From Patescibacteria group bacterium (GTDB taxonomy: Bacteria; Patescibacteriota; Minisyncoccia; UBA6257; 2-01-FULL-56-20), in assembly GCA_018971305.1 (NCBI GenBank), contig JAGXBC010000002.1:144046-208045 (forward strand): a stretch of 64,000 nt of DNA, given 5' to 3'. The notes beneath the pieces were generated by a model. It saw nothing but the letters and a program-made list of their open reading frames with translations. It was not told the origin of the DNA and did not search any database. The translations under genes were made by a program, and so were the position numbers. Position 1 is the stretch's first letter. The number at the start of each line of letters is the position of its first letter. This document shows, piece after piece, positions 1 to 59,529 of this stretch.

Positions 1-1052
1 TGAATGTCACTAAGGTTATTCACTCTGCCATCGTTGCCAGGATTAAATTATTATCTGGTCTCAAGATAGACGAGCACATGAGACCGCAGGACGGACGTTT
101 TCGGCATCAGATAGTAAACCAAGTTGTAGACGTGCGTGTCTCCGCGATACCGACCTATTATGGCGAGAAAGTAGAAATGCGTCTTTTGGACGCGACGCAG
201 AAACCTTTATCGTTGGAAGAGTTAGGAATGAACGAAACTATTTCTAAAATTGTTAATAACAATACTAAAAGTGCTTACGGTATGATTCTATCCTGCGGGC
301 CTACCGGTTCCGGAAAAACGACAACGCTTTACGCGATTATGAATATTTTGAACAAGCCGGAGGTCAATATTACCACAATTGAAGACCCGATTGAATACAA
401 TATGCGCTACGTGAATCAAACGCAGATAAATCCCCAGGCTGGCGTGACCTTTGCCTCAGGTCTTAGAGCTCTTCTCCGTCAAGACCCCAATATTATTATG
501 GTGGGCGAAATCAGAGACGCCGAGACCGCCGGAATTTCTGTTCAGGCGGCTCTTACTGGTCATCTTTTAATGTCTTCCTTGCACACGAACGACGCCCCCA
601 CGGCCATCCCGCGCCTCTTTGACCTTAATATTCCGCCATTTCTCGTTTCATCGGTATTAAATCTTGTGATAGCTCAACGCCTGGTGAGAAAAATTTGCCA
701 GACCTGCGTTTATTCTTTCGAGGCCGCTTCTGATATCCGCAAGGTTATTGCAGATCAGCTTAAAGATGTCGGTGCCGAGAGGGCCGAGGCCGAAATGCCC
801 AAGATTTTTTATCGCGGCAAAGGCTGTGACGATTGCGGTAAGACCGGCTATAAGGGAAGGCTTGGAATTTTTGAAGCTCTGGAGATAAATGATAAAATTA
901 AGAAGCTTATTGGTACCGGGTCTTTTGAACTGGAGGCCCTGCGCTCCGAGATCAGAAGAGAGGGGATGAAAACAATGTTTGAAGACGGCTTGGAGAAAGC
1001 CGAACTAGCCGTGACCACCATAGAGGAAGTATTGAGGGTCATCAGGGAATAG
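1..1052 (+). CDS. pilB: Type IV pilus assembly ATPase PilB/GspE family (5'-partial; reading frame open to window start)
   Basis: Frame is open upstream of the annotated ATG at 78 (..ARIKLLSGLKIDEHMRPQDGRF matches the GspE motif), Walker A GPTGSGKTT, Asp/His boxes, C-terminal CxxC..CxxC zinc motif (CQTC...CDDCGKTG). Confidence 0.85.
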   Translation, partial: NVTKVIHSAIVARIKLLSGLKIDEHMRPQDGRFRHQIVNQVVDVRVSAIPTYYGEKVEMRLLDATQKPLSLEELGMNETISKIVNNNTKSAYGMILSCGPTGSGKTTTLYAIMNILNKPEVNITTIEDPIEYNMRYVNQTQINPQAGVTFASGLRALLRQDPNIIMVGEIRDAETAGISVQAALTGHLLMSSLHTNDAPTAIPRLFDLNIPPFLVSSVLNLVIAQRLVRKICQTCVYSFEAASDIRKVIADQLKDVGAERAEAEMPKIFYRGKGCDDCGKTGYKGRLGIFEALEINDKIKKLIGTGSFELEALRSEIRREGMKTMFEDGLEKAELAVTTIEEVLRVIRE

Positions 1053-1070
1053 AAATTAGAAAATAGAACA
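1050..1070 (+). repeat. Three tandem TAGAAAN heptamers (TAGAAAT TAGAAAA TAGAACA) starting at the pilB stop codon
   Basis: Read directly from the sequence; the same motif recurs at 8753-8780 and 13686-13699. Confidence 0.5.
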
Positions 1071-1149
1071 AAATAAACAAATAAAAAAATAAACAGAGTA
1101 GAATTTAATTAGTTGATCGTGGGATTGAAGAAATAAAATCAAATCATCC

Positions 1150-1180
1150 TACTTCCTACTTTCTACTTTCTACTTTCTAC
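1150..1180 (+). repeat. Tandem heptamer array TACTTCC(TACTTTC)x3 TAC abutting the pilC start codon
   Basis: Read directly; it is the reverse complement of the GTAGAAA/TAGAAAN family found about 80 bp upstream; no room for a classical RBS before the ATG at 1183. Confidence 0.5.
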
Positions 1181-1182
1181 TA

Positions 1183-2388
1183 ATGCTTTACCACTACGTT
1201 GCCTCCGACAATTCAGGGAAGATTCTAGAAGCGGATTTGGATGCCGATAATTTGAGCCGCGTTCTTCAATACCTCGCGGGTCGTGACCTCCGCCCTATTT
1301 CTGTAAAGCCAGTCAAAGAAAGCGTATTCAACTTCAGGCGTTTTTTTGGAACAATAAGTATCTCCGATAAAATTTTTCTTACCAAGTATTTAGCTCTCAT
1401 GCTGCGCGTGGGAACAGATCTGTTGTCGGCTATCAATATTTTAATTTCCGATTTTGACAAACCTGCCGTCAAAAATTTTCTTTTGGAGGTTCGTGACAAT
1501 CTGAGCCGCGGCCAGCAGTTCTATAAGGCCTTTGAGAGTCATCCGGAAGCGTTTTCCCAAACCTTCGTTAGTTTAATCAAAGCAGCTGAGACATCCGGCA
1601 ATCTGCAGTCTACATTTGAAGAGCTCTCAACCTCCTTGGTACAGGAATCGGATTTGAGGAGTAAAATAAGAAGCGCATTTATCTACCCGATAATATTATT
1701 GAGCTCGGCATCTGGCGTGGTTGTATTTCTTGTCACCTTCGCTTTGCCCAAAATATCCCAGGTTTTCGTTGAGAGCGGCATAAAGCCGCCGTTTTTCTCC
1801 GGCCTTGTCTTTAGCGTAGGGCTTTTTATAGGAGGTAATATTTGGATAATTTTGCCGTTACTCCTCGCCATTATAGGATTTTTGGTTTACGCCTATTTCA
1901 AAACCGAAGTCGGCAAACAGATTTTCTATCGGGCTCTGAGCAATACCCCTATAATCAAAGAGATTTATAAGCAAATCGCGATTCAGCGGCTTGCTTCCAC
2001 GATGAGCTCTCTTATGCGCGCCGGACTACCTATAATAGACACAATTAAAGTCGCTGCCGATACGGTGGGACTAGCCGAATTCAGGTTCAGCTTGGAAAGA
2101 ATTGCTAACGAGGGGCTGTCTAAGGGTCTGACGATAGGTGAGGCATTCAAGCGCGAAGTCGTTTTCCCCAGGGCCGTCACCAATCTAATCGCCATTTCCG
2201 AAAAAGCTGGGCACCTGGAGGAAGTTCTAAAAACACTTTCCGATTTCTACGCGGCCAATATCGATTCCAGTATAAAGTCGCTAGTTTCATTCCTGGAGCC
2301 GATGCTCCTGTTAATGATGGGTTTGCTCGTGGCGATTATAGCTCTTTCTATAATAGTGCCAATCTATCAATTGGCTACGCAATTTTAA
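1183..2388 (+). CDS. pilC: Type IV pilus assembly inner-membrane platform protein PilC (GspF family)
   Basis: 401 aa, duplicated GspF-like cytoplasmic domains and three TM segments, immediately downstream of pilB. Confidence 0.85.
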   Translation: MLYHYVASDNSGKILEADLDADNLSRVLQYLAGRDLRPISVKPVKESVFNFRRFFGTISISDKIFLTKYLALMLRVGTDLLSAINILISDFDKPAVKNFLLEVRDNLSRGQQFYKAFESHPEAFSQTFVSLIKAAETSGNLQSTFEELSTSLVQESDLRSKIRSAFIYPIILLSSASGVVVFLVTFALPKISQVFVESGIKPPFFSGLVFSVGLFIGGNIWIILPLLLAIIGFLVYAYFKTEVGKQIFYRALSNTPIIKEIYKQIAIQRLASTMSSLMRAGLPIIDTIKVAADTVGLAEFRFSLERIANEGLSKGLTIGEAFKREVVFPRAVTNLIAISEKAGHLEEVLKTLSDFYAANIDSSIKSLVSFLEPMLLLMMGLLVAIIALSIIVPIYQLATQF

Positions 2389-3148: not shown

Positions 3149-6100
3149 ATGAAAAAATATCTCGTCATAGGAATAGCACTCGCCGCGTTCTTTTCGTTCG
3201 CGCCCCGTTCCCATGCCGCATATTCCTATTACATGAGCCTGACCGTGACGAGTACGCCGACAATAGCTTCCGGTACGCAAACCAATTTCCCCATGCTTGT
3301 ATCTTCAACTGTTTCTTCGTGGGCTTCATCTGGTAATGGTGGGAATGTTCAGAACCTTACAACAGCTCCGAATGGTGTACAAGAACCAGCTGACCTTGTA
3401 TTCGCTACCTCTTCGGCAAACTGCGGCACTGCGAACCTCAACTTCGAAACAGAGTCGTATACTTCCAGCACGGGCGCTCTCATTGATTGGGTAAACGTGC
3501 CCTCTCTTTCCGCGGGAAGCGTTATCTATGCTTGTTACGATAATTCTTCGGTGACGACCGACCAATCCCATCCGTCTTCCACGTGGAACTCGCAATATCA
3601 GGATGTGTTCCATTTTCCGAACGGCACGATTCTTAACGCAAGCGATTCTACTGCAAATGCGAATAACGGAACTATACATACCGTTACCGCGACAACGACA
3701 GGAGAAATTGACGGTGCTGGGAATTACAACGGTTCTTCCGATATTACGCTGAAATCATCTCAAGACTATTATAACTTTACGGCGGAAAGCTGGGTAAATT
3801 ATATACAGGGAGGGCAAATTGAAACTATTGTTTCAAATAAGGGGACGGGGTGTACTGCTGGTTCGACAAACGATGGATACGCACTATATGTAAATAGTTA
3901 CAATACCAGCGATGAAAATCTTGTGTTTGAGGTTGGTAATAATGGCGGTTGTACTGCACATACTTTCAAAGATTCAACCACCCTTATAGTTCCAGGTAAA
4001 TGGACGGATGTCGCAGTAACTTATGCAAGCAGTACGGGGAGTGCTTCATTATTCGTGAATGGTTCGCTTATTGTGTCTACCAGTTCCCTCGCAAAAAATC
4101 TTCAGACCAATTCTTCAACGAACCCGTTTACAATCGGCGCTTTTGCCTACAATACGAACGTTCCCTATTACATATCGGGCAGGATAGACGAAACGCGAAT
4201 ATCAAATGCGGTGCTCTCACCTTCATGGATTCTCACCGAGTATAATAACCAATCAAGCCCTTCCACTTTCTACGCGGTGGGGGCGCAGACGGCATTTTCC
4301 GCCTCCGACACCTCTCCCCCCACCCCCAACCCCATGGCCTTCGCCTCGGGCTCACCGACCGTCACAGGAACTTCAACAATAACAATGAGCGCCACCACGA
4401 CAGCTACGGATGCTACCTTACCAGTTTATTTCCAATTCGCTAATGTTTCTTGTACTTCTAACGGCGGCTCCAATGGCACATCCTCTACCTGGATAACCAC
4501 GAGTTCTTTCCCCTATAGCAACGCCGGCCTCCAAGCCAACGAATGTTACGCCTATACCGTTCAGGCAAGAGATTCCGTCTCGCCTACTCCGAATACCGGG
4601 ACGGCCTCGGCAAGCTCTTCCATCTACACCTACGCTTCCACCCCCGGAACCCCAACCCTGAACGGTGCCTCCACTTCAACTCTCAATATCACGGTAGCCG
4701 CTAACGGCAACCCCAGCTCCAATCCGACAACCCTTTTCTCCGTACAGGTAACCTCAACCTCACCAACAGACAACAATACTCTAGGCAAATTTATCGACTC
4801 CGCAGGAGCCATAACAACTAGTGCCGTCTGGCTTTCTGCCGCAACCTGGAATGCCGTTGCCATCAAGAACCTCCAGGCGAATACCACTTACGGCATTACA
4901 GTCCAAGCGGAGAATAACGGCACCCCGAACATTGCTACCGCCTGGAGCGCGATAGGGAGCGGGACGACGAATGCCAGTCTACCAGGAACTCCGGGTACGC
5001 CGACGTATAGCAATGTTTCTACGTCAACAATGACAGTAAGCTGGACTTCGGCGACGAATGCAACTTACTATGACTTGGAGCGCGGCACTAACGGTAATAC
5101 ATTCGCCCATATAACAACAACTACTGCTCCGACGGCAACTTATAACGATTCCGGTCTCTCTATATCAACCACTTATTATTATCGTGTCAGGGGAAATAAC
5201 TCATCCGGCGACGGCTCTTACAGCGCATCGTCGAGCCAGGCGACCACGTCGGGCAATTCTTCTCCTAATGCGCCCTCCGCGGACTCTCCTGCCAATGCCT
5301 TAAGCGATGTGAGCACAGCTCCGGTTTTCAAGATGACGGCAACAGACCCCAATTCGGACACGATAAGATATAAGGTTATTATTTATTCCAACTCGGGATG
5401 CACGACAATCGTGCAGACCAATGACCAAAATTCTTCGCAAACCGGCTGGAGCGGACAGAATGCTTCTTCCAGCACTTCTTATACTTCTGGTACGCAGGGG
5501 ACATATACGGTTCAAAGCAATCTTTCTAGCAATACCACTTATTATTGGCAAACTTATGCCATAGACCCATCGGGTTCAAATACCTGGAGTTCGGCTTCAG
5601 CTTGTCAGAATTTCACGACTACTTATGGAAATTGGGTAACAGACTCTGGCAGTTGGAGTATCTCGTCCAGCCAGCTTGTTGCTACGCCTACATCTAGTTC
5701 GATATTCCAGATTCATGCCAGCACTACAAGTCAGACGAATGCAGTTGTTGATTTCAAGATGAAAGCAAGCGCAACAGGTGCTAATACTGGCAGTGGCGGG
5801 GCAGTTCTCCGTGCCGATACTGGCAGCAACAGGTATCTACTGCCTGTTGGTAATGTTCAGAACAATCTTTCTGTTGTCGGTGCGACTATCTCCAACGCAT
5901 ATAGCACCGTTGCTTCCACGGCTTTCACTTTCAGTGCGGCAACCTTCTATCAGTTCAGGGGGTCGCTTTCCGGAACCTCCTTAAAGTCCTGGATTAACGG
6001 CGGCACCGCTATCTCGGCAAGCACATCAAGTTTGGGTAGCTCCGGTTTTTCCGGACTTTACGCGTCGTCAACCAACGGCAGCGTTACCTTTACTTACGAC

Positions 6101-7846: not shown

Positions 7847-8749
7847 ATGCGTACGTTACCAATCAATTTTAAAATATTATTAATATTATTTATTGCCGTT
7901 TGCGGTGTGTTTTTACGTTTGCCTGCGGCTAATGCTTCCACAAATATCAGCGCGACCACTACGGACCACTGGGCTTGGAGCGATGTTATCGGTTGGATTG
8001 ATTTTTATAACACTCTGACGGTTACGGTGAGCTCCACTGCGTTGAGCGGTTATGCGAGTTCGTCGGCCGGAGATATTTCTCTTGACTGTGCGACGACGAG
8101 GGGCGGGAATATCTGTTCCCCCAGTAATGGCAATTATTATGTATCAAACGATAACTCGGGGAATCTGGCTGGATGGGGTTGGAACGACACTTACGGTTGG
8201 GTAAGCTTTTGCGGTGGGCAGGGGACAGCTAATTGTCCTGGTGCCGTTTCTTATCTAACCTATATTCTAGGCAATGGTAAGTTTGAGGGCTGGGCCTGGA
8301 ACGATATCGTTGGATGGCTTAGTTTCAATTGCAATAATTATAGCGATTGCGACACTAATGCCAGCACAACACAATATAGGGTTACTACCAGTTGGCAGCC
8401 GAGTTCAACAATAGGAACACTTGACTCCAGCACTTTTGATACCGGAGTGAATGCCGGTGCCCAGTTGAATTCCGTTATGTGGAATGGTCCGACGCCACCA
8501 GGCGGTACTTCGGTAAAATTCCAGTTTGCCTCGTCTAATTCTTCTAGTGGCCCTTGGACTACGTATATCGGTACCGATGGAACTTCCAACACCTATTATA
8601 CTCCATCTGGTCCGAACGTTCCGGTAAGACTCAGCTATACACTTCATAATAATTATCGTTATTTCCGTTACAGAGTCAGTTTATTTTCCAACTCATCGTC
8701 AACTCTTACCCCGGAAGTGGACGATATTATTATTAACTGGAGCCCGTAG
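7847..8749 (+). CDS. Secreted protein with three Trp-rich GW-type internal repeats, pilus-locus associated
   Basis: Signal peptide; repeats HWAWSDVIGWIDF / GWGWNDTYGWVSF / GWAWNDIVGWLSF each followed by a Cys-containing segment. Confidence 0.45.
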   Translation: MRTLPINFKILLILFIAVCGVFLRLPAANASTNISATTTDHWAWSDVIGWIDFYNTLTVTVSSTALSGYASSSAGDISLDCATTRGGNICSPSNGNYYVSNDNSGNLAGWGWNDTYGWVSFCGGQGTANCPGAVSYLTYILGNGKFEGWAWNDIVGWLSFNCNNYSDCDTNASTTQYRVTTSWQPSSTIGTLDSSTFDTGVNAGAQLNSVMWNGPTPPGGTSVKFQFASSNSSSGPWTTYIGTDGTSNTYYTPSGPNVPVRLSYTLHNNYRYFRYRVSLFSNSSSTLTPEVDDIIINWSP

Positions 8750-8752
8750 GGT

Positions 8753-8780
8753 AGAAATTAGAGAGTAGAAAATAGAATAA
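8753..8780 (+). repeat. Four TAGAAAN heptamers (TAGAAAT TAGAGAG TAGAAAA TAGAATA)
   Basis: Read directly; second copy of the module seen at 1050-1070. Confidence 0.5.
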
Positions 8781-8790
8781 AATTTCCAAT

Positions 8791-9237
8791 ATGAATAAAC
8801 ACAAAAAGAATATAATGCTATTTTCTATTTTCTATTTTCTATTTTCTCGCAAGTGGGGTCAGGCCGTTCTCTCCCTTGTCCTTTTAATGGGAGGTGTGAT
8901 AGTCGTTATTGCCTTGAGCTTGGCCTTCTTCGCAACTTCTTTTGTCAACTCAGCATACGGTTTCCAGGCAGCTCAGCGGGCAGAAGCAATTGCTTCTGCC
9001 GGGGTTTATGATGCCATGATAATGCTCGTTCGCGAGGGGAGCGGGCTAACACTTTCCTCTTCCTCGGTTCCTATCGGCAGTGATACGGCCACGGTTACGA
9101 TTGTGGCTAATTCGCCGGCGACCGGTGAGTCCACGATAACTTCTTATGCATCTGTTTCTCAAAGGCAAAGAACTCTTACAGTCATTGTTTCCGTATCATC
9201 AAGCACTGGGCAAGTTCTGCCGGTTTCCTGGCAATAA
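8791..9237 (+). CDS. Hypothetical membrane-anchored protein in pilus locus
   Basis: Lys-rich N-terminus plus a long hydrophobic segment; no Glu+5, so not a canonical pilin; start uncertain because a 28-nt heptamer array sits in the 5' region. Confidence 0.4.
   Translation: MNKHKKNIMLFSIFYFLFSRKWGQAVLSLVLLMGGVIVVIALSLAFFATSFVNSAYGFQAAQRAEAIASAGVYDAMIMLVREGSGLTLSSSSVPIGSDTATVTIVANSPATGESTITSYASVSQRQRTLTVIVSVSSSTGQVLPVSWQ
8819..8846 (+). repeat. (TATTTTC)x4 tandem heptamer array, inverted complement of TAGAAAA
   Basis: Read directly; lies inside the 5' end of ORF 8791-9237 if the first ATG is used, or in its leader if translation starts at the Met at 8887. Confidence 0.5.
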
Positions 9238-9309: not shown

Positions 9310-10824
9310 ATGAAAAAAGCAATCCGTTATTATTTTGAAAAGTTATTAAGCATTTTGAAGGTCAGGCAAAATGTAGGGGGAGTTGAAATCTCCGACCTTG
9401 CTTTGCGTTTCGCTAATTTTGACGGAGAAAATTGGCGCATCAGCGGCGTGCGTTTGGAGCCGGGAATATTGGATGGCGGAAAGATAAAGAACAGGGAAAA
9501 ATTTATTGAGGCGTTGAAGACGCTGAAGCTTCAGGCTCTTGGAGAGGATAAAGCCAGAAAGAAGATGAGTATCGTAGCCTCATTGAGCTCCATAAGTATT
9601 TATAGCCAAGTTTTCAGCTTGCCCATAATTGAAGGAGAAAATTTGAGCAAAGCCATAGACCTTAATGTACAGATGGTTTCCCCGATAGAAGCAGCTCAGG
9701 CTTATTCCGGATGGCAGACTGTCGGTGAGGACCAAAGCTCGTTGCGTCTGGAAATTCTGAGCGCCTTTATTGATAGAAGCGTCGTTGACGGTATGAGTCA
9801 GGCTTTTCGCGACGCTGGGTTTATGATGATAGCCATGGAATCACGAGCCCTGGCCCTCGCCCGTCTTTTAAGGACCGAAGGGGTGGGTTTTGACCCTCTG
9901 AAGGCCTATATTTTAATCAGTTTGGATAATTCCGGTTTGGACTTCTTAATAATCAGGGGTGGCCAGCTTTATTTTGAATATTTTAGTCCCTGGCGCGATG
10001 TTGCCGATGATCAGGGGCAAATTTCCATGCCGGCATTTGAAGCCGTGATCACCCGCAACTTACATCAGGTAATGAATTTTTATGGCCAGCACTGGAAAGA
10101 ACCTTTGGGTGAGGTTTTGCTTTCGGTTTCGGCTATGAGGGAAGACGTGGAAAGGATAATAAAGAGCAATTTTTCTTTAAGCGCAACCGACCTGAAATTA
10201 AAAACAATTCAATCCGTTGGTCCAGAATGGTATGTGGTTTTAGGATGCGGCTTGCGCGGGCTCACTTCTAGGAGCAGAGATAAAGAAATGAGCCTGTTGG
10301 GCATTGGCGCCAGGGAAGAATTTGCCCGTGAACAGCTTGTGTCCTTCGCGGAATTTTGGAAATTACTTATGCCAGTTGCTCTTGGCCTGCTCGTAATTAT
10401 TTTCGTTTTCGCCGATTTATTTCTGGTTCAGACTAGAAAGTCTCTGGAATCGCAATCGCTATTCACCATGGAGAGCGGAGCGGCGAAAGAAAACGAACTT
10501 TTACAAACTCAGGCCGAAAGTTTCAACCAATCAGTTAAGATGATAGCCTCCGTAGAGAGTACTTCTGTTTCTCAGGGAAGATTATTGGAAAAAATTTCCG
10601 GTATTGCTTCTTCGAACGGTGTAACAATCAACAGGCTTTCCGTGGCAGTCTCTTCAAATAATGCAACATTGAATGGTCTAGCTGATTCCGAAAGCAAAAT
10701 TGTGGCCTTTAAAGATGCACTGACCGCAGATTCGGCTTTTAAAGATATTAATTTACCACTCTCTGCTATAAGCGTCGGTCCGTCCGGCCTATCTTTTTCA
10801 ATGTCTTTCACGCTTAATAGATAA
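9310..10824 (+). CDS. pilM: Type IV pilus assembly protein PilM fused to a PilN-like C-terminal domain
   Basis: N-terminal region resembles the PilM actin-like fold (..RLEPGILDGGKIKNREKFIEALKTL..), a central TM segment (LLMPVALGLLVIIFVFADLFLV) and a periplasmic C-terminal domain as in PilN. Confidence 0.55.
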   Translation: MKKAIRYYFEKLLSILKVRQNVGGVEISDLALRFANFDGENWRISGVRLEPGILDGGKIKNREKFIEALKTLKLQALGEDKARKKMSIVASLSSISIYSQVFSLPIIEGENLSKAIDLNVQMVSPIEAAQAYSGWQTVGEDQSSLRLEILSAFIDRSVVDGMSQAFRDAGFMMIAMESRALALARLLRTEGVGFDPLKAYILISLDNSGLDFLIIRGGQLYFEYFSPWRDVADDQGQISMPAFEAVITRNLHQVMNFYGQHWKEPLGEVLLSVSAMREDVERIIKSNFSLSATDLKLKTIQSVGPEWYVVLGCGLRGLTSRSRDKEMSLLGIGAREEFAREQLVSFAEFWKLLMPVALGLLVIIFVFADLFLVQTRKSLESQSLFTMESGAAKENELLQTQAESFNQSVKMIASVESTSVSQGRLLEKISGIASSNGVTINRLSVAVSSNNATLNGLADSESKIVAFKDALTADSAFKDINLPLSAISVGPSGLSFSMSFTLNR

Positions 10825-13278: not shown

Positions 13279-13695
13279 ATGGAAGATTGTCTATTCTGTA
13301 AGATAGCCGCAAAGCAGATACCGGCGGATGTTGTTTATGAGGATGAAAACACGCTGGCATTTCTTGATGTGAATCCCAGGGCTCCGGGGCATACTATTAT
13401 TATTCCAAAGAGCCACCGGGAGACGATTCTAGATTTACCGGAGAAGGAGACAAGCAGTTTGTTTTCAGCGGTTAAGATAGTGGCTGATGCGGTTTCCGGG
13501 GCTTTGCACGCTGATGGCTTGAATATCGGAATAAATCATAAGCCCGCCGGCGGACAGGTAGTCAATCATCTCCACGTCCATATTTTGCCAAGGTTTATAG
13601 GCGACGGGGGTACGTCGGTCCAGGGAATAGTAAATAATCCACCGAAGGATTCGTTAAAAGAAATCTGTAAAAAAATTAAGTCATTTAGAAATTAG
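13279..13695 (+). CDS. HIT-family (histidine triad) nucleotide hydrolase
   Basis: HIT motif NHLHVHILPR; 138 aa. Confidence 0.8.
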   Translation: MEDCLFCKIAAKQIPADVVYEDENTLAFLDVNPRAPGHTIIIPKSHRETILDLPEKETSSLFSAVKIVADAVSGALHADGLNIGINHKPAGGQVVNHLHVHILPRFIGDGGTSVQGIVNNPPKDSLKEICKKIKSFRN

Positions 13696-13726
13696 AAATT
13701 TTAATCTGTAAATTATAATTTTAATT

Positions 13727-20095: not shown

Positions 20096-20422
20096 TTACC
20101 AGCGGTCTCTGTGACCACCTCCGAATCCACCGCCATTACCGCCACGGTCGTTGTCCCTGCGAGGAGGACGAGCCTCCATCGGCCGGGCTTCGTTCACCGT
20201 AAGCGAGCGTCCGCCGAAGTCTTTGCCATTCCACATTTCGATAGCCTTGTCAGCTTCTTCATCGGAAGACATTTCAACGAAACCGAATCCTTTGGAACGA
20301 CCAGAGAATTTATCTATGATTATCGTTGCTGAGGTAACGGTTCCGGCTTTGGCGAAAGCGTCCTGCAATTCCTCCTGAGTGGTGGTATAAGGCAGTCCGC
20401 CAACGTATAATTTCTTAGCCAT
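20096..20422 (-). CDS. Glycine-rich RNA-binding protein with RRM domain
   Basis: RNP-2 (LYVGGL) and RNP-1 (KGFGFVEM) motifs; Gly/Arg-rich C-terminal tail. Confidence 0.85.
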   Translation of the reverse strand: MAKKLYVGGLPYTTTQEELQDAFAKAGTVTSATIIIDKFSGRSKGFGFVEMSSDEEADKAIEMWNGKDFGGRSLTVNEARPMEARPPRRDNDRGGNGGGFGGGHRDRW

Positions 20423-20839: not shown

Positions 20840-20964
20840 CTATGGATCCCGTTAGATATTAAGCATCTGCGGGACAAGTAGATTGTAAATACAAGAAAGA
20901 TAATATTATTCAGAATAAATTAACTAATATTACGGAAACGTAAACGTTTCCTATCTCTAACGGG

Positions 20965-22791
20965 ATGGATATAAGAAACATTGCAATTATAGCTCACGTT
21001 GACCACGGCAAAACCACGCTCGTGGATGCTTTGCTGAGGCAGTCGTTGAATTTTAGGCCGAGTGTTGATGCGCCGAAGGAACTGATTATGGATTCCAACG
21101 AACTGGAGCGCGAACGGGGGATCACTATTTTTTCCAAGAACGCGGCCGTGACCTATAAAGACGTGAAAATAAATATCGTGGACACTCCCGGCCACGCTGA
21201 TTTTGGCGGCGAGGTGGAACGGATAATGCGCATGGTGGACGGCGTGCTTTTGCTTGTGGACGCGAAAGAAGGTCCTATGCCACAGACGAAGTTTGTCTTA
21301 AGGAAGGCGATACAGGCCGGGCATAAGGTAATAGTCGTTATAAGTAAGATGGATAAGCCGGACGCGCGCCCGGAGTGGACCTTAAACGCGATTTACGATC
21401 TTTTCTTTGAGCTTGGCGCTAGCGAAGCTCAAATTGAATTCCCTGTTGTCTACACGGCGGCATCTTTAGGCAAGGCCGGATTTACTAAAAATTTGAACGA
21501 GATGCAGAACATCGAACCAATCTTTGAAACTATAATTAAATATATCCCCGCCCCAGTTGTGGACATGGAAAAGCCCTTGCAGATGCTTACGGTAAATCTC
21601 GCTTATGATAACTACAAGGGGAAGGTAGCAGTCGGCCGGCTTTATTCGGGAACCATGAAAAAGGGTATGAATGTTGCGCATATTAATCGTTCGGGAGAAA
21701 TAAAACACACCCCCCTAAGCTCTGTCATGGTTTTTGATGGTCTTGGCCGTGTTGACGTAGTTGAGGCTTTTGCGGGAGACATCGTCGCGGTGGCCGGTAT
21801 TCCCGATATCACGATAGGAGAAACCATTGCCGACGCCGAGCATCCGGTGGCGTTGCCTACGATTACCATAGATGAGCCGACGATAAAGATGACCTTCGGT
21901 GTCAACACATCTCCCTTTAAGGGCAAGGAGGGGAAATTTACTACTTCCAGAAATCTCAAGGAGCGTTTGGAGCACGAACTGGAAACTGACGTAGCGCTTT
22001 CCGTGGTGCCAACAGAGACTACCGATCGCTGGGTGGTTGCTGGCCGCGGCGAACTACACCTTTCGATTTTAATAGAAAAAATGCGCCGCGAGGGATACGA
22101 GCTGGAAGTTTCCCGCCCGCAGGTAATTTTCAAAGAAAAAGACGGCAAAAAATTGGAACCGATGGAGCTTGTGTCCGTGGAAACTCCGGAACAATATTCC
22201 GGTGCAGTTATCGAGATGATGGGCAAGCGTCTCGGGATTATGAAAGATATGCGCGTTGATAAACAAAACGTTTCCATGGATTTTGCGATTCCTACAAGAG
22301 GTCTCATCGGCGCGCGCGATAAGTTTTTGACGGCAACAAAAGGCACGGGCGTTATGAACAGTATTTTCCTCGGCTACGAGGAATATAAGGGAGAGATAAG
22401 CTCCATGCAGCACGGTTCTATAGTCGCGAGCGAGGCCGGAACTACCAACAATTACGGTTTAGTTACTGCTCAGGGACGCGGCACTTTGTTTCTTGGTCCC
22501 GGAGTGCCGGTTTATGCCGGAATGGTTGTGGGTAAGAACGCCAAAGCGGGGGACATGATCGTCCACGTTTGCCGTACACGGGCGCTTACAAACTTCCGCG
22601 CCAAAAACGAAGGATTGGGCGACCAGCTGGAGACGCCGCTTAATTTATCTCTGGAAGATTCATTGGACTATATCGGCGACGATGAACTTGTTGAGATAAC
22701 TCCTAAGAGTATTAGGATAAGAAAATTGTATCTTACGGAAAACGAGCGCAAGCGCGCCAGCTCCAGCGCCTTCAAAGAAAAGACCGGTTAA
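20965..22791 (+). CDS. typA: Translational GTPase TypA/BipA
   Basis: [23 protein letters not shown]1 motif, [11 protein letters not shown]-like domain structure, 608 aa. Confidence 0.9.
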
Positions 22792-23333: not shown

Positions 23334-23694
23334 TCCGCGGTAGCTCAACGGTAGAGCGGCTCCCTGTCAACAAGCATTCGATAGGGCTCAGTATTGATAC
23401 TGAGCGATAGTCGAAGTATCAAAAGGCAGCCATGCGTAGTAATGCACATAGGAAAAATCGGGCTAATTCGGGGAACCCCTTTATGAAATTAAAGGGCAAT
23501 CCCGAGCTAAATTCCGAAACGAAGTTTAGGACTTGTCCTCGGCTTCGCTGAAGGATAAACGTGTAGAGACTATATACCCGAATCCCAAAACGCCTGCCTG
23601 CCGGCAGGCAGGGGATATGAGATAGTCCAGCCCTTTCGGTAACGGAAGGAAAACTGTAAGGAGAAGGTTCCTGGTTCGAATCCAGGCCGCGGAG
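23334..23694 (+). tRNA. tRNA-Asn(GUU) interrupted by a group I intron; exons 23334-23367 and 23657-23694
   Basis: 5' exon tccgcgg-ta-gctc..gagc-g-gctcc-ctgt; 3' exon taa-ggaga-aggtt-cctgg ttcgaat ccagg-ccgcgga-g; acceptor stem perfectly paired (U1-A72), discriminator G73; reconstituted anticodon loop cuGUUaa. Confidence 0.7.
23368..23656 (+). other. Group I self-splicing intron (289 nt) in the tRNA anticodon loop, inserted after U35
   Basis: Core elements in canonical order: P-like ctaattcggggaa, Q-like caatcccgagc, R-like gtagagactata, S-like gagatagtcc; 5' exon ends in U; intron ends in G (omega G, 23656). Confidence 0.65.
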
Positions 23695-23788
23695 CTTGGG
23701 TGTTTTTCTTAGATAAATCAAAGACAGATAATTCTTTGTTAGTCATGATCGGGTTGTAACCAGCATGGTAAGATGATGATATGATAAT

Positions 23789-24370
23789 ATGATAATCTTG
23801 TTTGGATATGTTTCGGCAGTTTGTATAATCTCTTCGTTCGTTCCGTATTTTGTGACCTTGTTTAAGGGGGCAACAAAACCGGAAAGAACTTCTTGGTTTC
23901 TTTGGGCATTACTTGGCGGGATAAGTTTCTTTTCTCAACTATCAAAGGGAGCAACACATTCATTATGGTTGCCCGGGATTCAAGCCTTGGGAGATTTTTT
24001 GGTCTTTATCCTTGCAATAAAATACGGCATCGGTGGGTGGAAAAAAAGGGATAAAGTTTCTCTGGTTATTGCGATGTTGAGTTTGGTTGTTTGGTATGTG
24101 ACAGGGCAGTCAGCCGTTGCACTATTTGCGGCTATTATAATTGATGCAAATGGTGTTGTTTTGACGATGATAAAGTCATATGAACTTCCCTCCACCGAGC
24201 CAATTAGCTCTTGGACCCTAACTGGGCTGAGCGGTTTCTTCGCAATATTTGCCGTTGGGCAAATAGATTGGATACTTTTGGCATTTCCGGTTTACACTTT
24301 TGTCGCTAATGTTGGAATTGTTTTATCTATTATCTTTGGGAAAAGAAATTCTAACCTGCGTTCTATATAG
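23789..24370 (+). CDS. Hypothetical polytopic membrane protein
   Basis: 193 aa with about six hydrophobic helices. Confidence 0.4.
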   Translation: MIILFGYVSAVCIISSFVPYFVTLFKGATKPERTSWFLWALLGGISFFSQLSKGATHSLWLPGIQALGDFLVFILAIKYGIGGWKKRDKVSLVIAMLSLVVWYVTGQSAVALFAAIIIDANGVVLTMIKSYELPSTEPISSWTLTGLSGFFAIFAVGQIDWILLAFPVYTFVANVGIVLSIIFGKRNSNLRSI

Positions 24371-56688: not shown

Positions 56689-59529
56689 ATGCCTAAATAT
56701 GATTCGCAGAAAGTCGAGAAGAAATGGCAAAAGAAGTGGCTGGAGGAGAAAGTTTACGAGCCGGACTTAAAGAACCCGAAGAAGCCGTTCTATAACCTGA
56801 TGATGTTCCCGTATCCGTCGGCAGAAGGTTTGCACGTCGGGAATATGTACGCTTTTACGGGAAGCGATATTTATGGCCGCTATCAGAGGATGCGCGGCAA
56901 TGATGTGTTTGAGCCGATAGGGCTTGATGGCTTCGGCATCCACTCGGAAAATTATGCCCTAAAAGTCGGTACGCATCCAATGGAGCAGGCCAAAGTTTCC
57001 GAAAAGCGTTTTTACGAGCAACTGCAGGCGATAGGCAATGGTTTCGCCTGGGACGAACATCTGGAGACCTATGACCCCGAGTATTATAAGTGGACGCAAT
57101 GGATTTTTACGCAGATGTGGAAGCGGGGATTAGCTTACAGAAAAAAACAAAGGGTTAATTGGTGCCCCAAAGACAAAACGGTTTTAGCGGACGAGCAGGT
57201 TGAGGGCGGCAAGTGCGAGCGCTGCGGCAGCGTTGTTGAAAAACGCGAACTGGAACAGTGGTTTTTCAGGATAACCGCTTATGCAGAAAAGCTTTTGCAG
57301 AATATCGAAAAATTAGATTGGTCCGAAAAAGTTAAAATCGCCCAAAGAAATTGGATAGGCCGTTCGGAAGGCGCGCTTTTGAAGTTCCCGGTTATGGGTT
57401 CAAAGTTATCAATAGAAGTTTTTACCACGCGGCCCGACACTTTGTTCGGTGCGACCTACATGGTTTTAGCGCCGGAACACGCGTTAGTTTTAGAATTGAA
57501 AGAAAAAATATCCAACTGGAAAGATGTTGAAAAATATATAGAGAGTTCCAAAAAGAAAACAGAGGATGAACGAATTGCCGAAGGCAAAGAAAAAACCGGT
57601 GTCGAATTGAAAGGCGTCAAAGCCATAAACCCGGCCAATAAAGAAGAAATTCCCATCTGGCTTGCCGACTACGTTCTTTCCGGCTACGGAACAGGAGCAA
57701 TAATGGCCGTGCCGGCGCAAGACGAGCGAGATTCTGAATTTGCCAAGAAATTTAAACTGCCCATAAGAACAGTCATTGAGCCGATAACCGGTGAACCAAG
57801 AACAGACGAAAGTGAAAGGGCGGGAATAGTGGCAATAGTAGAGGACCCTAAAACCGGTAAAATACTCTCGTTAGATTGGCGTGATGGCGGAGGTGTTCTT
57901 TTTGTCGGTGGAGGCATAGAAAGCGGAGAAGATCTGATACGGTGCGGGGTGCGAGAGATAATAGAAGAAACAGGATATAAAAACTTAAAATTTATTTCAT
58001 CCACAGAAACAATACACCACCATTTCCATGCATTTTCCAAGAACAAGAATAGATACATGCATGCGATCGGTTTATATTTTCAATTGGAAAATGAAGAAAG
58101 AGAAAAAGAACGCTTGGAGGATCATGAAAAAGATAAATTCATTGTTGGATGGATTACTAAGGACGAAGCCGAAAGCAAGGTTAAAGATGCAATGCATCAA
58201 TATATTTTTCAGAAACTAATCCGTGGGAAGTGTTATTCCGGTCCAGGGCTGCTGGCAAATTCTGGAAAATTCTCCGGTATGGATTCCGAAAAAGCCAAAT
58301 GGGAAATAACGAAATTCGTCGGCGGCGAAAAGAAAATCCAATATCGTTTGCGCGATTGGCTTATTTCGCGCCAGCGCTATTGGGGCCCGCCGATACCGAT
58401 GGTTTATTGTGAGGCGTGCGCCAAAGAGAATAAAGGGGAACAAAAGGAAATGCCCGGCTGGTTTGCGGTTCTGGAAAATGAACTGCCTGTTGAGCTCCCT
58501 AAGGTAAAGGATTTTAGGCCGCAGGGTAAGGGGGAGTCGCCGCTAGCATCCGTGAAAGATTTTTACGAAACAACATGCCCTGGTTGCGGCGGCAAGGCGC
58601 GCAGAGAAACAGATGTTTCCGACACGTTCCTGGATTCTGCCTGGTATTATCTCCGCTATCTGGACCCAAAAAATGAAAAAGAAGTTTTTGATAAAAAGAT
58701 AATCAAAAAATGGCTGCCGGCGGAAATGTATATCGGTGGTGCCGAGCACGCCGTATTACACCTTCTTTATGTTCGTTTTATCGCTATGGTTTTCCACGAC
58801 CTGGGTCTTGTTGAATTTGACGAGCCCTTCAAGCGTTTCCGGGCCCACGGGCTTCTGATAAAAGAGGGCGCCAAGATGTCCAAATCAAAAGGCAACGTTG
58901 TAAACCCCGATGAATATATAAAAAAATTCAGCGCCGATGTTCTGCGGATGTACCTTATGTTCCTCGCCCCTTTTGATCAGGGCGGTGATTTCCGCGACGC
59001 GGGGATTCTTGGCATTGAGCGATTCTTAAATAGGACATGGAAATTATATGAAAGCGAAGGCAAGAAAAATAAAACTTCACCGGCCTTTCATCGCGCCGTA
59101 AAAAAAGTTACGGAAGACATTGAGTCGCTTCATTACAACACGGCAATCAGCGCCCTCATGATACTTTTGAACGAATTTGAAAAAGAGGGAATTGCGCCGG
59201 AAGAAAAAGTCGGATTCGTAAAGCTTCTCGCTCCTTTTGCGCCGCACATGGCGGAGGAAATTTGGCGGGAAGTTCTCGGCCATAAAACGTCAATTCATAA
59301 AGAGATGTGGCCGGAATACGACGAGAAGCTGATAAAAGAAGAATCGTTCACGCTTGTTATCCAGATTAACGGCAAAGTGCGCGCAAGTGTTGAAGTTCCA
59401 ATCGATATAAGCGAGAATAGAGCTAAAGAGACCGCGCTGGGAAACGAACGAGTTTGTGCTCTTCTCGATGGCAAAGAGCTGAAAAAAGTAATCTATGTGC
59501 CGAAAAAATTAATTAACATCGTCGTTTAG
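56689..59529 (+). CDS. leuS: Leucyl-tRNA synthetase with a Nudix hydrolase domain inserted in the CP1 editing domain
   Basis: HIGH-type motif PYPSAEGLHVGN, editing motifs TTRPDT and VPAQDERD, KMSKSKGN, C-terminal tRNA-binding domain; about 150 extra residues between ..KFKLPIRTVI and GLLANSGKFSGMD.. containing the Nudix box GGGIESGEDLIRCGVREIIEETGY. Confidence 0.9.
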   Translation: MPKYDSQKVEKKWQKKWLEEKVYEPDLKNPKKPFYNLMMFPYPSAEGLHVGNMYAFTGSDIYGRYQRMRGNDVFEPIGLDGFGIHSENYALKVGTHPMEQAKVSEKRFYEQLQAIGNGFAWDEHLETYDPEYYKWTQWIFTQMWKRGLAYRKKQRVNWCPKDKTVLADEQVEGGKCERCGSVVEKRELEQWFFRITAYAEKLLQNIEKLDWSEKVKIAQRNWIGRSEGALLKFPVMGSKLSIEVFTTRPDTLFGATYMVLAPEHALVLELKEKISNWKDVEKYIESSKKKTEDERIAEGKEKTGVELKGVKAINPANKEEIPIWLADYVLSGYGTGAIMAVPAQDERDSEFAKKFKLPIRTVIEPITGEPRTDESERAGIVAIVEDPKTGKILSLDWRDGGGVLFVGGGIESGEDLIRCGVREIIEETGYKNLKFISSTETIHHHFHAFSKNKNRYMHAIGLYFQLENEEREKERLEDHEKDKFIVGWITKDEAESKVKDAMHQYIFQKLIRGKCYSGPGLLANSGKFSGMDSEKAKWEITKFVGGEKKIQYRLRDWLISRQRYWGPPIPMVYCEACAKENKGEQKEMPGWFAVLENELPVELPKVKDFRPQGKGESPLASVKDFYETTCPGCGGKARRETDVSDTFLDSAWYYLRYLDPKNEKEVFDKKIIKKWLPAEMYIGGAEHAVLHLLYVRFIAMVFHDLGLVEFDEPFKRFRAHGLLIKEGAKMSKSKGNVVNPDEYIKKFSADVLRMYLMFLAPFDQGGDFRDAGILGIERFLNRTWKLYESEGKKNKTSPAFHRAVKKVTEDIESLHYNTAISALMILLNEFEKEGIAPEEKVGFVKLLAPFAPHMAEEIWREVLGHKTSIHKEMWPEYDEKLIKEESFTLVIQINGKVRASVEVPIDISENRAKETALGNERVCALLDGKELKKVIYVPKKLINIVV

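Follow-up and report, generated by a model that had tools for sequence, protein, structure and literature searches.

What could pairs of short heptanucleotide arrays, one the reverse complement of the other, be doing between the type IV pilus (T4P) genes of an uncultivated bacterium? The question is raised by a 64,000-nucleotide (nt) stretch of the Patescibacteria group bacterium assembly GCA_018971305.1 (contig JAGXBC010000002.1, positions 144,046 to 208,045 of the forward strand), the whole of which is called the window here. Its T4P operon contains two such modules, module 1 at the pilB-pilC junction and module 2 before a PilX-like minor pilin gene. The arrays exist, their arms are complementary, and they are concentrated at pilus-operon junctions. 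At orthologous junctions of related Paceibacteria the architecture is retained while the sequence of the repeat unit is fully replaced. Because relatives keep the arrangement with different repeat sequences, the module probably works by base-pairing on pilus gene expression. The specific reading that we favor, though only tentatively, is that the module is a hairpin-forming inverted pair of simple sequence repeats (SSRs) that would act in cis on the mRNA and gate translation or processing.

Type IV pili are thought to be central to host attachment and DNA uptake in the Candidate Phyla Radiation (CPR, or Patescibacteria). To our knowledge, nothing has been described about the control of pilus gene expression in these uncultivated bacteria, most of whose genes lack a Shine-Dalgarno (SD) sequence.

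Two inverted heptamer modules in the pilus operon

Each module consists of two period-7 arrays separated by a spacer that would form the loop of a hairpin. The parts of the two modules are as follows:

1050-1070, forward strand: module 1 arm 1, TAGAAAT-TAGAAAA-TAGAACA
1071-1148, forward strand: module 1 spacer or loop, A-rich, with a stray TAGAATT at 1099
1149-1181, forward strand: module 1 arm 2, (CTACTTY) x4.7, the reverse complement of arm 1
8751-8778, forward strand: module 2 arm 1, GTAGAAA-TTAGAGA-GTAGAAA-ATAGAAT, beginning 2 nt past the TAG stop of the open reading frame (ORF) at 7847-8749
8779-8817, forward strand: module 2 loop, with ATG at 8791, TATAAT at 8811-8816 and ATG at 8815
8818-8847, forward strand: module 2 arm 2, (CTATTTT) x4.3, within ORF 8791-9237

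In module 1, the first TAG of arm 1 (1050-1052) doubles as the pilB stop codon, and the period of 7 puts TAG into all three reading frames. Arm 2 reads TACTTCC-(TACTTTC)x3-TAC and stops 1-2 nt short of the pilC ATG at 1183. Tandem Repeats Finder (TRF) assigns period 7 to both arms (3.0 copies at 1048-1068, 4.7 at 1149-1181), and an 8-9-nt AAATAAAC-like repeat spans 1060-1095, across arm 1 and the spacer. The best pairing joins 1050-1068 with 1161-1179, so that the arms are 19 nt long, 89% complementary and 92 nt apart. The z-scores are -3.0 for the duplex of the arms and +4.3 for the gapless inverted-repeat score. A sigma-70-type two-hexamer scan of module 1 found no promoter, an intrinsic terminator scan found no terminator, and -10-like matches in the loop occur at chance level only.

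Module 2 is placed 7.6 kb downstream. Its arms are 25-33 nt long, 82-88% complementary and 24-45 nt apart, and TRF again gives period 7 (3.9 copies at 8751-8777, 4.3 copies at 8818-8847). The module folds into a stem of at least 19 bp with a minimum free energy of -33.9 kcal/mol (z = -5.2), and none of 200 shuffles folded as well. Arm 2 lies in codons 10-19 of ORF 8791-9237 and encodes FSIFYFLFS, which stands N-terminal to the pilin-like G|QAVLSLV. The ATG at 8815 aligns with the start codon of orthologues, while TAAAAT at 8778-8783, followed after 7 nt by the ATG at 8791, fits a leaderless start. The two-hexamer sigma-70 scan and the terminator scan gave no relevant match in module 2. Rfam 15 at gathering thresholds had no match at either module.

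An earlier reading of the sequence alone (the sequence-only reading) had described direct TAGAAAN heptamers at 1050-1070 and an inverted array before pilC, and both are present. It had also called the second module near-identical to the first. The architecture and the TAGAAAN arm are indeed common to both, but the likeness ends there: arm 2 of module 2 is CTATTTT and not CTACTTT, its loop is ~40 nt as against ~80-90 nt, and the interiors cannot be aligned. The same reading had noted that no SD precedes pilC, which is true but nothing special here, since only 9 of 70 window genes have an SD-like 4-mer. Many window genes have TATAAT 5-11 nt ahead of the start codon; together with the scarcity of SD-like 4-mers, this suggests that leaderless or very short-leader mRNAs are widespread in the organism.

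The motif is concentrated at a few sites and is not plain AT-rich low complexity, the outcome that would have deflated the sequence-only reading. With at most one mismatch, TAGAAANTAGAAA has 13 matches in the window as against 0.92 expected, and none of 100 shuffles reached 13. The matches sit at 1050-1179, 8752-8848 and 13686-13698, the sole exception being in a coding region. Lag-7 autocorrelation is raised only in intergenic DNA within the pilus locus, at 0.385 compared with 0.262 for the remaining 43 spacers. As head-to-tail 7-nt units beyond chance, the window arrays belong with long heptanucleotide SSRs, and the window holds 2.5 module copies, all inside 1-13.7 kb of the 64 kb. A third array was also found:

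13685-13700, forward strand: unpaired array, TTAGAAA x2.3 (TRF, period 7)

This array, which has no inverted partner, includes the TAG stop of a HIT-family gene and precedes rpsU by 27 nt. A promoter with TATAAT at 13714-13719 probably has a -35 region that overlaps the array. Partnerless arrays of the TTAGAAAT type occur here before rpsU and, in two related loci, before ftsA (L038 15522-15551 and L160 15149-15206); these are alike in sequence across species, unlike the pilus modules.

A candidate module before pilB (L167 1945-2045, same genome) appears 7-periodic by eye but was rejected, with a fold z of +0.13 and an inverted repeat of 13 nt only. Minimum-free-energy z-scores for 102 gene starts (-110 to +49) proved too coarse, since arm 1 of module 1 was clipped and the top scores were ordinary terminators.

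The T4P operon occupies the left 11 kb of the window. Its genes, in order, are:

3-1052, forward strand: pilB, T2SSE ATPase, 5' end cut by the window edge; the cistron before module 1
1183-2388, forward strand: pilC, T2SSF platform protein; the cistron after module 1
2414-2935: pilin-like gene
between the pilin-like gene and the N-methyl pilin: fn3 protein of 1106 residues
7173-7823: N-methyl pilin
7847-8749: 300-residue protein with a TAG stop; the cistron before module 2
8791-9237, forward strand: PilX-N-like minor pilin of 148 residues; the cistron after module 2
9310-10824: PilM/N-like protein

Sequence turnover at orthologous junctions

Close relatives are metagenome-assembled genomes (MAGs) of Paceibacteria/Parcubacteria. 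The comparison set comprised the pilC loci of 29 related species and four syntenic loci found through homologues of the 148-residue ORF; single loci are cited by L numbers. The clearest case is the junction before the PilX-like gene. In all six species with DNA examined, both arm 1 and arm 2 are present, and each species uses another unit (arm 1 / arm 2):

window: TAGAAAN / CTATTTT
L037: GTAGTAT / CTACTAC
L036: TTAGCTN / CAAGCTAG (period 8)
L038: GTAGGCA x10 / CTACCGC x4
L160: GGTTTTA / CTAAAAC
L162: TAGTAAG / CTACYAC

The trace of the arrays can also be seen in proteins, as most of 10 PilX-like database homologues carry an N-terminal extension that resembles a translated array (e.g., LLPTTYYLL), and DNA confirms five of them. 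Perfect sense TATAAT is found in 5 of 25 module loops against 1.3 expected, and antisense in none. The loops with sense TATAAT are mostly those of orthologues of the PilX-like junction (window 8811-8816, L037, L038, L162, L019 and L160), and a promoter inside the loop of module 2 is plausible. MRYNLN, a conserved N-terminal peptide of some PilX-like homologues, may in fact be TATAAT promoter DNA.

More generally, period-7 tandem arrays abound in the T4P loci of related Paceibacteria. TRF found 75 of these in 34 related loci, as against 9 arrays of period 6 and 32 of period 8. Typically, arm 1 begins 0-9 nt past the upstream stop and arm 2 ends at the next start or inside the part of a prepilin gene that codes for the leader peptide. 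Arm 1 is purine-rich and contains TAG in most modules, and arm 2 is pyrimidine-rich and contains CTA. Many arrays fall in pilin codons 1-25, the leader-peptide part just before G|FTLIEL or G|QSLVEV, in which case the loop between the arms holds the start codon together with a Lys-rich stretch.

Pairing of the arrays exceeds what arrays of this kind show elsewhere. With a partner defined as a reverse complement that has at least 16 of 21 matches and is no more than 200 nt away, 21 of 56 period-7 arrays had one, compared with 2 and 3 in the reversed and complemented controls (Wilcoxon p ~1e-5). Generic TAGAAAN arrays from JGI metagenomes have such a partner in only 8 of 80 cases (Fisher p = 2e-4), so inverted partners are ~4x commoner in pilus-locus arrays. 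In the five annotated loci, significant inverted repeats span 12 of 30 T4P junctions and 3 of 28 others (p = 0.016). The unit as such is no pilus-specific signal, an idea that was rejected after a metagenome scan for TAGAAAN x3.4 gave more than 120 matches on contigs of 25-65% GC with no pilus genes near; the unit is therefore a generic heptamer repeat.

The pilB-pilC junction is more changeable. In about half of the 29 relatives, a species-specific inverted repeat fills the spacer from a point 0-9 nt past the pilB stop up to the pilC ATG. Several such repeats are 7-periodic, with the units TAGGCAT x5 / CCTAAGG (L021), TATAGAA x6 / AATCCTA x7 (L029), AATTTTC / TTGAAAA (L038), AAAATNN (L023, L160) and GCTCGTT (L007). 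In the other relatives, the spacer is only 2-15 nt, which suggests direct coupling, or a short promoter-like TGTGGTATCAT. L023, L028 and L029 each have a different state of this junction, at a nucleotide identity of 77-80%. Within one genome, modules tend to share a unit: TAGAAAN occurs at three window sites, and GTAGGNN in three modules of L038, although L038 also has the AATTTTC/TTGAAAA units. Before pilB of L038, the hairpin loop is ~3 nt only (by eye).

Repeats of other kinds were seen in these genomes as well. A second inverted-repeat family, GGATCCCGTTAGAT...ATCTCTAACGGGATG, occurs at window 20843-20966, L018 3768-3887, L032 ~3880-4002 and L038 16837-16955, and in L033 and L022. The ATG in which it ends belongs to typA/bipA in the window, to ftsZ in L038 and to pilC in L032 and L033. 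The flanking 4-6-bp direct repeats (ATGGAT, ATGAA, TAAA) resemble target-site duplications. The family appears to be an element like a miniature inverted-repeat transposable element (MITE), inserting at start or stop codons and providing the start codon itself. A ~200-nt repeat, GGCTTGGCCCAAGAGTGCGAGCCGCAGGCGAAGCGCGATTG..., is found at two T4P junctions of L162 (GCA_041480965.1; 1934-2143 and 10526-10751), and T4P junctions therefore tolerate or attract small repeated elements.

Possible action of the modules and rival explanations

Pairing of both arms in read-through T4P mRNA would yield a stem that is long and imperfect. For module 1, it would set the pilB UAG (1050-1052) against CUA at 1177-1179, 3 nt from the pilC AUG, and would mask ~20 nt before the SD-less pilC start. 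A ribosome ending on pilB would have to melt arm 1, by which arm 2 and the pilC AUG would be released. The outcome would be translational coupling over a 130-nt spacer, either through unmasking or through juxtaposition of stop and start, and unmasking would preserve the tight pilB-pilC coupling of the relatives with 2-15-nt spacers. In module 2, the start codon would lie in the loop or at the edge of the stem, the stem would also enclose the likely internal -10 element, and both arms would be present on read-through transcripts only. By analogy to the 5' untranslated region (5'-UTR) of Haemophilus hmw, the stem is a plausible substrate for an RNase III-type enzyme.

Tandem repeats would make such pairing tolerant of register shifts, and slippage would let the length of the stem drift, slowly. 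We thus see the module as an evolvable tuning knob and not as a demonstrated fast switch. The period of 7 needs no special reader because heptamers are the commonest long SSRs in bacteria, in the summary of Mrazek 2007 that is given in PMC4679880.

Several observations weigh against a role of the hairpin in mRNA. The hairpin of module 1 is thermodynamically marginal, the minimum free energy of the full region having z = -1.4; the long-range stem is missing from the centroid structure, and the loop is 92 nt long. Mismatches between the arms of 27 modules show no G:U bias (25 G:T, 20 A:C and 65 other, beside 556 Watson-Crick pairs); sense RNA is therefore not favored over an origin that is at the DNA level or purely mutational, e.g., quasi-palindrome template switching. 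A module exists outside the pilus genes, at the junction of the histidyl-tRNA synthetase (HisRS) and HIT genes of L160, and partnerless arrays occur, e.g., at window 13685 and at sites in L023 and L028. Lastly, unrelated MITE-like elements lie at the same junctions in other species, and these junctions may merely tolerate insertions.

A bolder version of the hairpin reading, to which we give little credence, is that the T4P operons of Paceibacteria carry self-complementary heptamer hairpins at most cistron starts, prepilin leader peptides included, lineage-wide, as a dedicated and self-renewing translation gate in an organism largely without SD-based initiation. Such a gate may re-initiate over spacers of 100 nt and more by stop-start juxtaposition, or may switch pilus components individually by a structure-dependent change in repeat number like that of hmw.

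The lack of G:U bias and the MITE-like elements at these junctions lead to a serious rival, which we regard as rather unlikely all the same, namely that the modules are neutral or selfish palindromic filler. They would be by-products of slippage, with additions from intrastrand template switching that restores inverted arms or from small insertions like MITEs or repetitive extragenic palindromes (REPs), at places where a compact operon tolerates DNA. Such filler, devoid of regulatory function, would gather in cleavable leader peptides and in the short gaps between cistrons. The absence of wobble bias in the arm mismatches fits this explanation, as do the gain and loss of whole modules at pilB-pilC between L023, L028 and L029, the abundance of TAGAAAN arrays in unrelated metagenomic contigs and that of heptamers among long SSRs in general. 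The same junctions also carry unrelated repeats with target-site-like duplications, among them the ATCCCGTTAGAG family and the 200-nt repeat of L162. However, filler does not easily account for a PilX-like junction that retains its inverted pair in 6 of 6 species despite total turnover of the unit, for the array-like N-terminal extensions of most PilX-like database homologues, or for the excess of inverted partners over generic arrays. Nor are modules 1 and 2 copies of a single MITE, since their interiors have nothing in common and target-site duplications are absent; no transposase or RAYT (REP-associated tyrosine transposase) gene was found in the 64 kb. In compact genomes, inserts of 100-130 nt are also unlikely to be free of cost.

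Two mobile-element classes were rejected on their own terms. As for a MITE, alignment of module 1, module 2 and the third site gave no shared core, and there is no duplication beyond the repeat's own TA; by contrast, duplications of 4-5 bp do accompany the ATCCCGTTAGAG family of these genomes. As for a REP or bacterial interspersed mosaic element (BIME) with its RAYT, there are 2.5 copies within 1-13.7 kb and no transposase family in the window.

Less probable still, and on balance improbable, is a contingency locus in which slipped-strand mispairing toggles the pilin-like ORF at module 2 and tunes pilC at module 1, as in Neisseria opa/pilC or Haemophilus hmw. The arrays are placed as phase-variable SSRs are, at the starts of surface-structure genes, and their unit length of 7 is not divisible by 3. 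Gain or loss of one unit in module 2 would shift the frame of the pilin-like ORF, with a stop at residue 29 or 75, and a change by three units would restore it. In many pilin genes arm 2 lies within the dispensable part that codes for the leader peptide, and array length ranges from 3-4.7 units in the window to as many as 10 in relatives. Here the sequence-only reading, which had proposed a microsatellite, was right that heptanucleotide SSRs stand at pilus-gene starts, but no length switching is seen. Neither module differs between the two NCBI MAGs and the three Logan runs, all of which represent one clone (0 mismatches in 12,388 nt); all 90% clusters hold this clone alone and the second MAG is 100% identical over 12.4 kb, so that the comparison carries no information on repeat mutability, and repeat numbers were compared in consensus assemblies only. 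Two further species, each from two metagenomes, are likewise identical in both arms (L160 = L161, L162 = L163), and repeat turnover is visible between species only. No OFF alleles were found, the in-frame start codon being kept in 61 of 61 pilin-type genes examined. Arrays of 3-4.7 units are short beside the at least 11 units of natural hmw alleles (PMC12721329), and slippage leaves the reverse-complement partner without explanation. One Logan contig (L005, SRR32006849) ends at its position 2365, i.e., window 8847, the last base of arm 2 of module 2. Low coverage and a branch of the assembly graph due to length heterogeneity are both possible, and a branch would speak for a contingency locus.

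The sequence-only reading had also suggested paired regulator sites that bracket a promoter. A pair of DNA operators, in which heptamer arrays bind a multimeric regulator that loops or occludes a promoter between them, is in our judgment very unlikely. It would agree with the unit shared among modules of one genome and with the conserved sense TATAAT in the loop of module 2 and its orthologues, so that the promoter half of the suggestion is plausible at module 2. At module 1, neither half stood, as there is no promoter and the unit is not conserved. Units are wholly different between species of 60-75% protein identity while complementarity is retained, L038 mixes two kinds of unit in one genome, and the ~3-nt loop before L038 pilB leaves no space for a promoter. 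No DNA-binding regulator is encoded within or next to the pilus locus. A conserved operator with a cognate regulator was accordingly rejected, the unit being different in L036, L037, L038, L160 and L162.

No easier to credit is an RNA-protein switch, in which arm 1 is bound by a ring protein of the HutP or TRAP type or by the RRM protein from 20096-20422, so that pairing of the arms is blocked and the downstream cistron turned on. Arm 1 of module 1, UAGAAAU-UAGAAAA-UAGAACA, is (UAG-N4)x3, the exact HutP motif, TAG or GTAG recurs in arm 1 of many species, and the RRM_1 protein is conserved in the window and L038. Yet several modules have no UAG (the AATTTTC, AAAATNN and GCTCGTT arms), one of them in a genome that also has GTAG-type modules, and no terminator follows the modules. 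A Pfam scan of the ~70 window proteins found no HutP, CsrA, RNase III (rnc), recombinase or transposase family. A HutP-type antitermination site was likewise rejected, the motif being in arm 1 only and the window having neither a HutP match nor a terminator. The small RRM_1 RNA-binding protein (20096-20422, reverse strand) is syntenic with a gene at L038 20115-20444; it is a candidate binder of single-stranded RNA with no link to the repeats.

An inverton, with a site-specific recombinase flipping a promoter or start-codon segment by means of the arms, recalls fimS in its inverted repeats around a short segment before pilus genes, and the loop of module 2 does hold a start codon and TATAAT, but it can practically be dismissed, as loops of 24-92 nt (~3 nt in L038) fall short of the roughly 100 bp or more expected of a segment that a recombinase inverts, the 64 kb encode no recombinase, and all six independent assemblies have one orientation.

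Elsewhere in the window, the Rfam 15 matches consist of three tRNAs and one group I intron. The intron (RF00028, 68 bits, 23381-23649) splits a tRNA gene at 23335-23700; tRNA-like exon halves flank it, and the gene is not called by ARAGORN. Close by, an 8-nt tandem array, ATGATAAT x4, at 23765-23796 overlaps the start of ORF 23789-24370. The leucyl-tRNA synthetase (56689-59529) has a NUDIX domain inserted at residues 378-498.

Relation to known repeats and hairpins

The modules resemble several known systems in part. HutP at the Bacillus hut terminator binds XAG three times with 4-nt spacers, at two sites (PMC2425495). Arm 1 matches this triple UAG-N4 spacing exactly and stands 5' of a complementary segment, as in hut, but neither a HutP homologue nor a terminator is present in the window, and UAG is missing from many sister modules.

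REP/BIME elements are palindromic units of 20-40 nt in hundreds of dispersed copies that are tied to the RAYT transposase, and they are able to affect mRNA stability and translation. The modules share with them species-specific imperfect palindromes with GTAG/CTAC motifs that lie between co-transcribed genes near stops, often as inverted pairs. They differ in that the arms are tandem heptamers, with 2.5 copies in one region of the 64 kb and no RAYT gene found there. The opa (CTCTT)n and pilC poly-G tracts of Neisseria are SSR contingency loci, in leader-peptide sequence, that are long and polymorphic within strains. Like them, the modules put a repeat whose unit length is not divisible by 3 into the sequence for the cleaved signal or leader of a surface protein; unlike them, the arrays here are short, show no differences among assemblies and come with an inverted copy.

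The short tandemly repeated repetitive (STRR) sequences of cyanobacteria are heptamer arrays, i.e., tandem repeats of period 7. With these and with long SSRs in general, the modules have in common their mostly intergenic, period-7 tandem arrays. That class, however, is set by periodicity alone and predicts neither reverse-complement partners nor placement from stop to start or in leader peptides. A more specific comparison is offered by the TAACTGA direct repeats of marine Beggiatoaceae, Cyanobacteria and Bacteroidetes, for which a role in translation has been proposed (PMC4679880). These too are short arrays (2-6 copies) of a heptamer that contains a stop codon, in intergenic DNA and a few nt from SD-less starts. 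However, TAACTGA is one fixed unit genome-wide (169 sets), lies beside unrelated genes and is almost never inverted, whereas the unit described here varies by species and junction, occurs in inverted pairs and is concentrated in the T4P operon.

The closest experimentally characterized analogue appears to be the heptamer hairpin in the 5'-UTR of Haemophilus influenzae hmw1A/hmw2A, in which RNase III cleaves a long hairpin with (AUCUUUC)n as one of its arms (PMC12721329). The hairpin is required for expression and for the change in repeat number (PMC12721329). In both systems, a pyrimidine-rich heptamer SSR (ATCTTTC in hmw, TACTTTC or TATTTTC here) stands upstream of an adhesin or pilus gene and is, or here would be, an arm of a long imperfect hairpin with a purine-rich partner. 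The hmw repeat is the 5' arm, has at least 11 units and lies in a monocistronic 5'-UTR opposite a non-repetitive, G-rich partner, whereas here both arms are arrays of 3-5 units, the pyrimidine arm is 3', and the module lies between cistrons or reaches into leader-peptide coding sequence.

Heptanucleotide SSRs and the hmw-type repeat hairpin are thus kinds already known. New here are the paired inverted arrays, their placement from stop to start or in the leader peptide, and a fixed position with complete sequence turnover in a CPR lineage; our literature searches found no report of repeats of this kind, or of phase variation, in CPR/Patescibacteria. Even neutral modules would mark hot spots of rapid structural turnover, at which assemblies can break and pilin starts can be misannotated. 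If their function is confirmed, it would mean a new cis-regulatory design that is conserved in place and hypervariable in sequence, and it would extend the link between SSR, hairpin and RNase III that is known from Haemophilus hmw to a distant phylum and to intercistronic positions.

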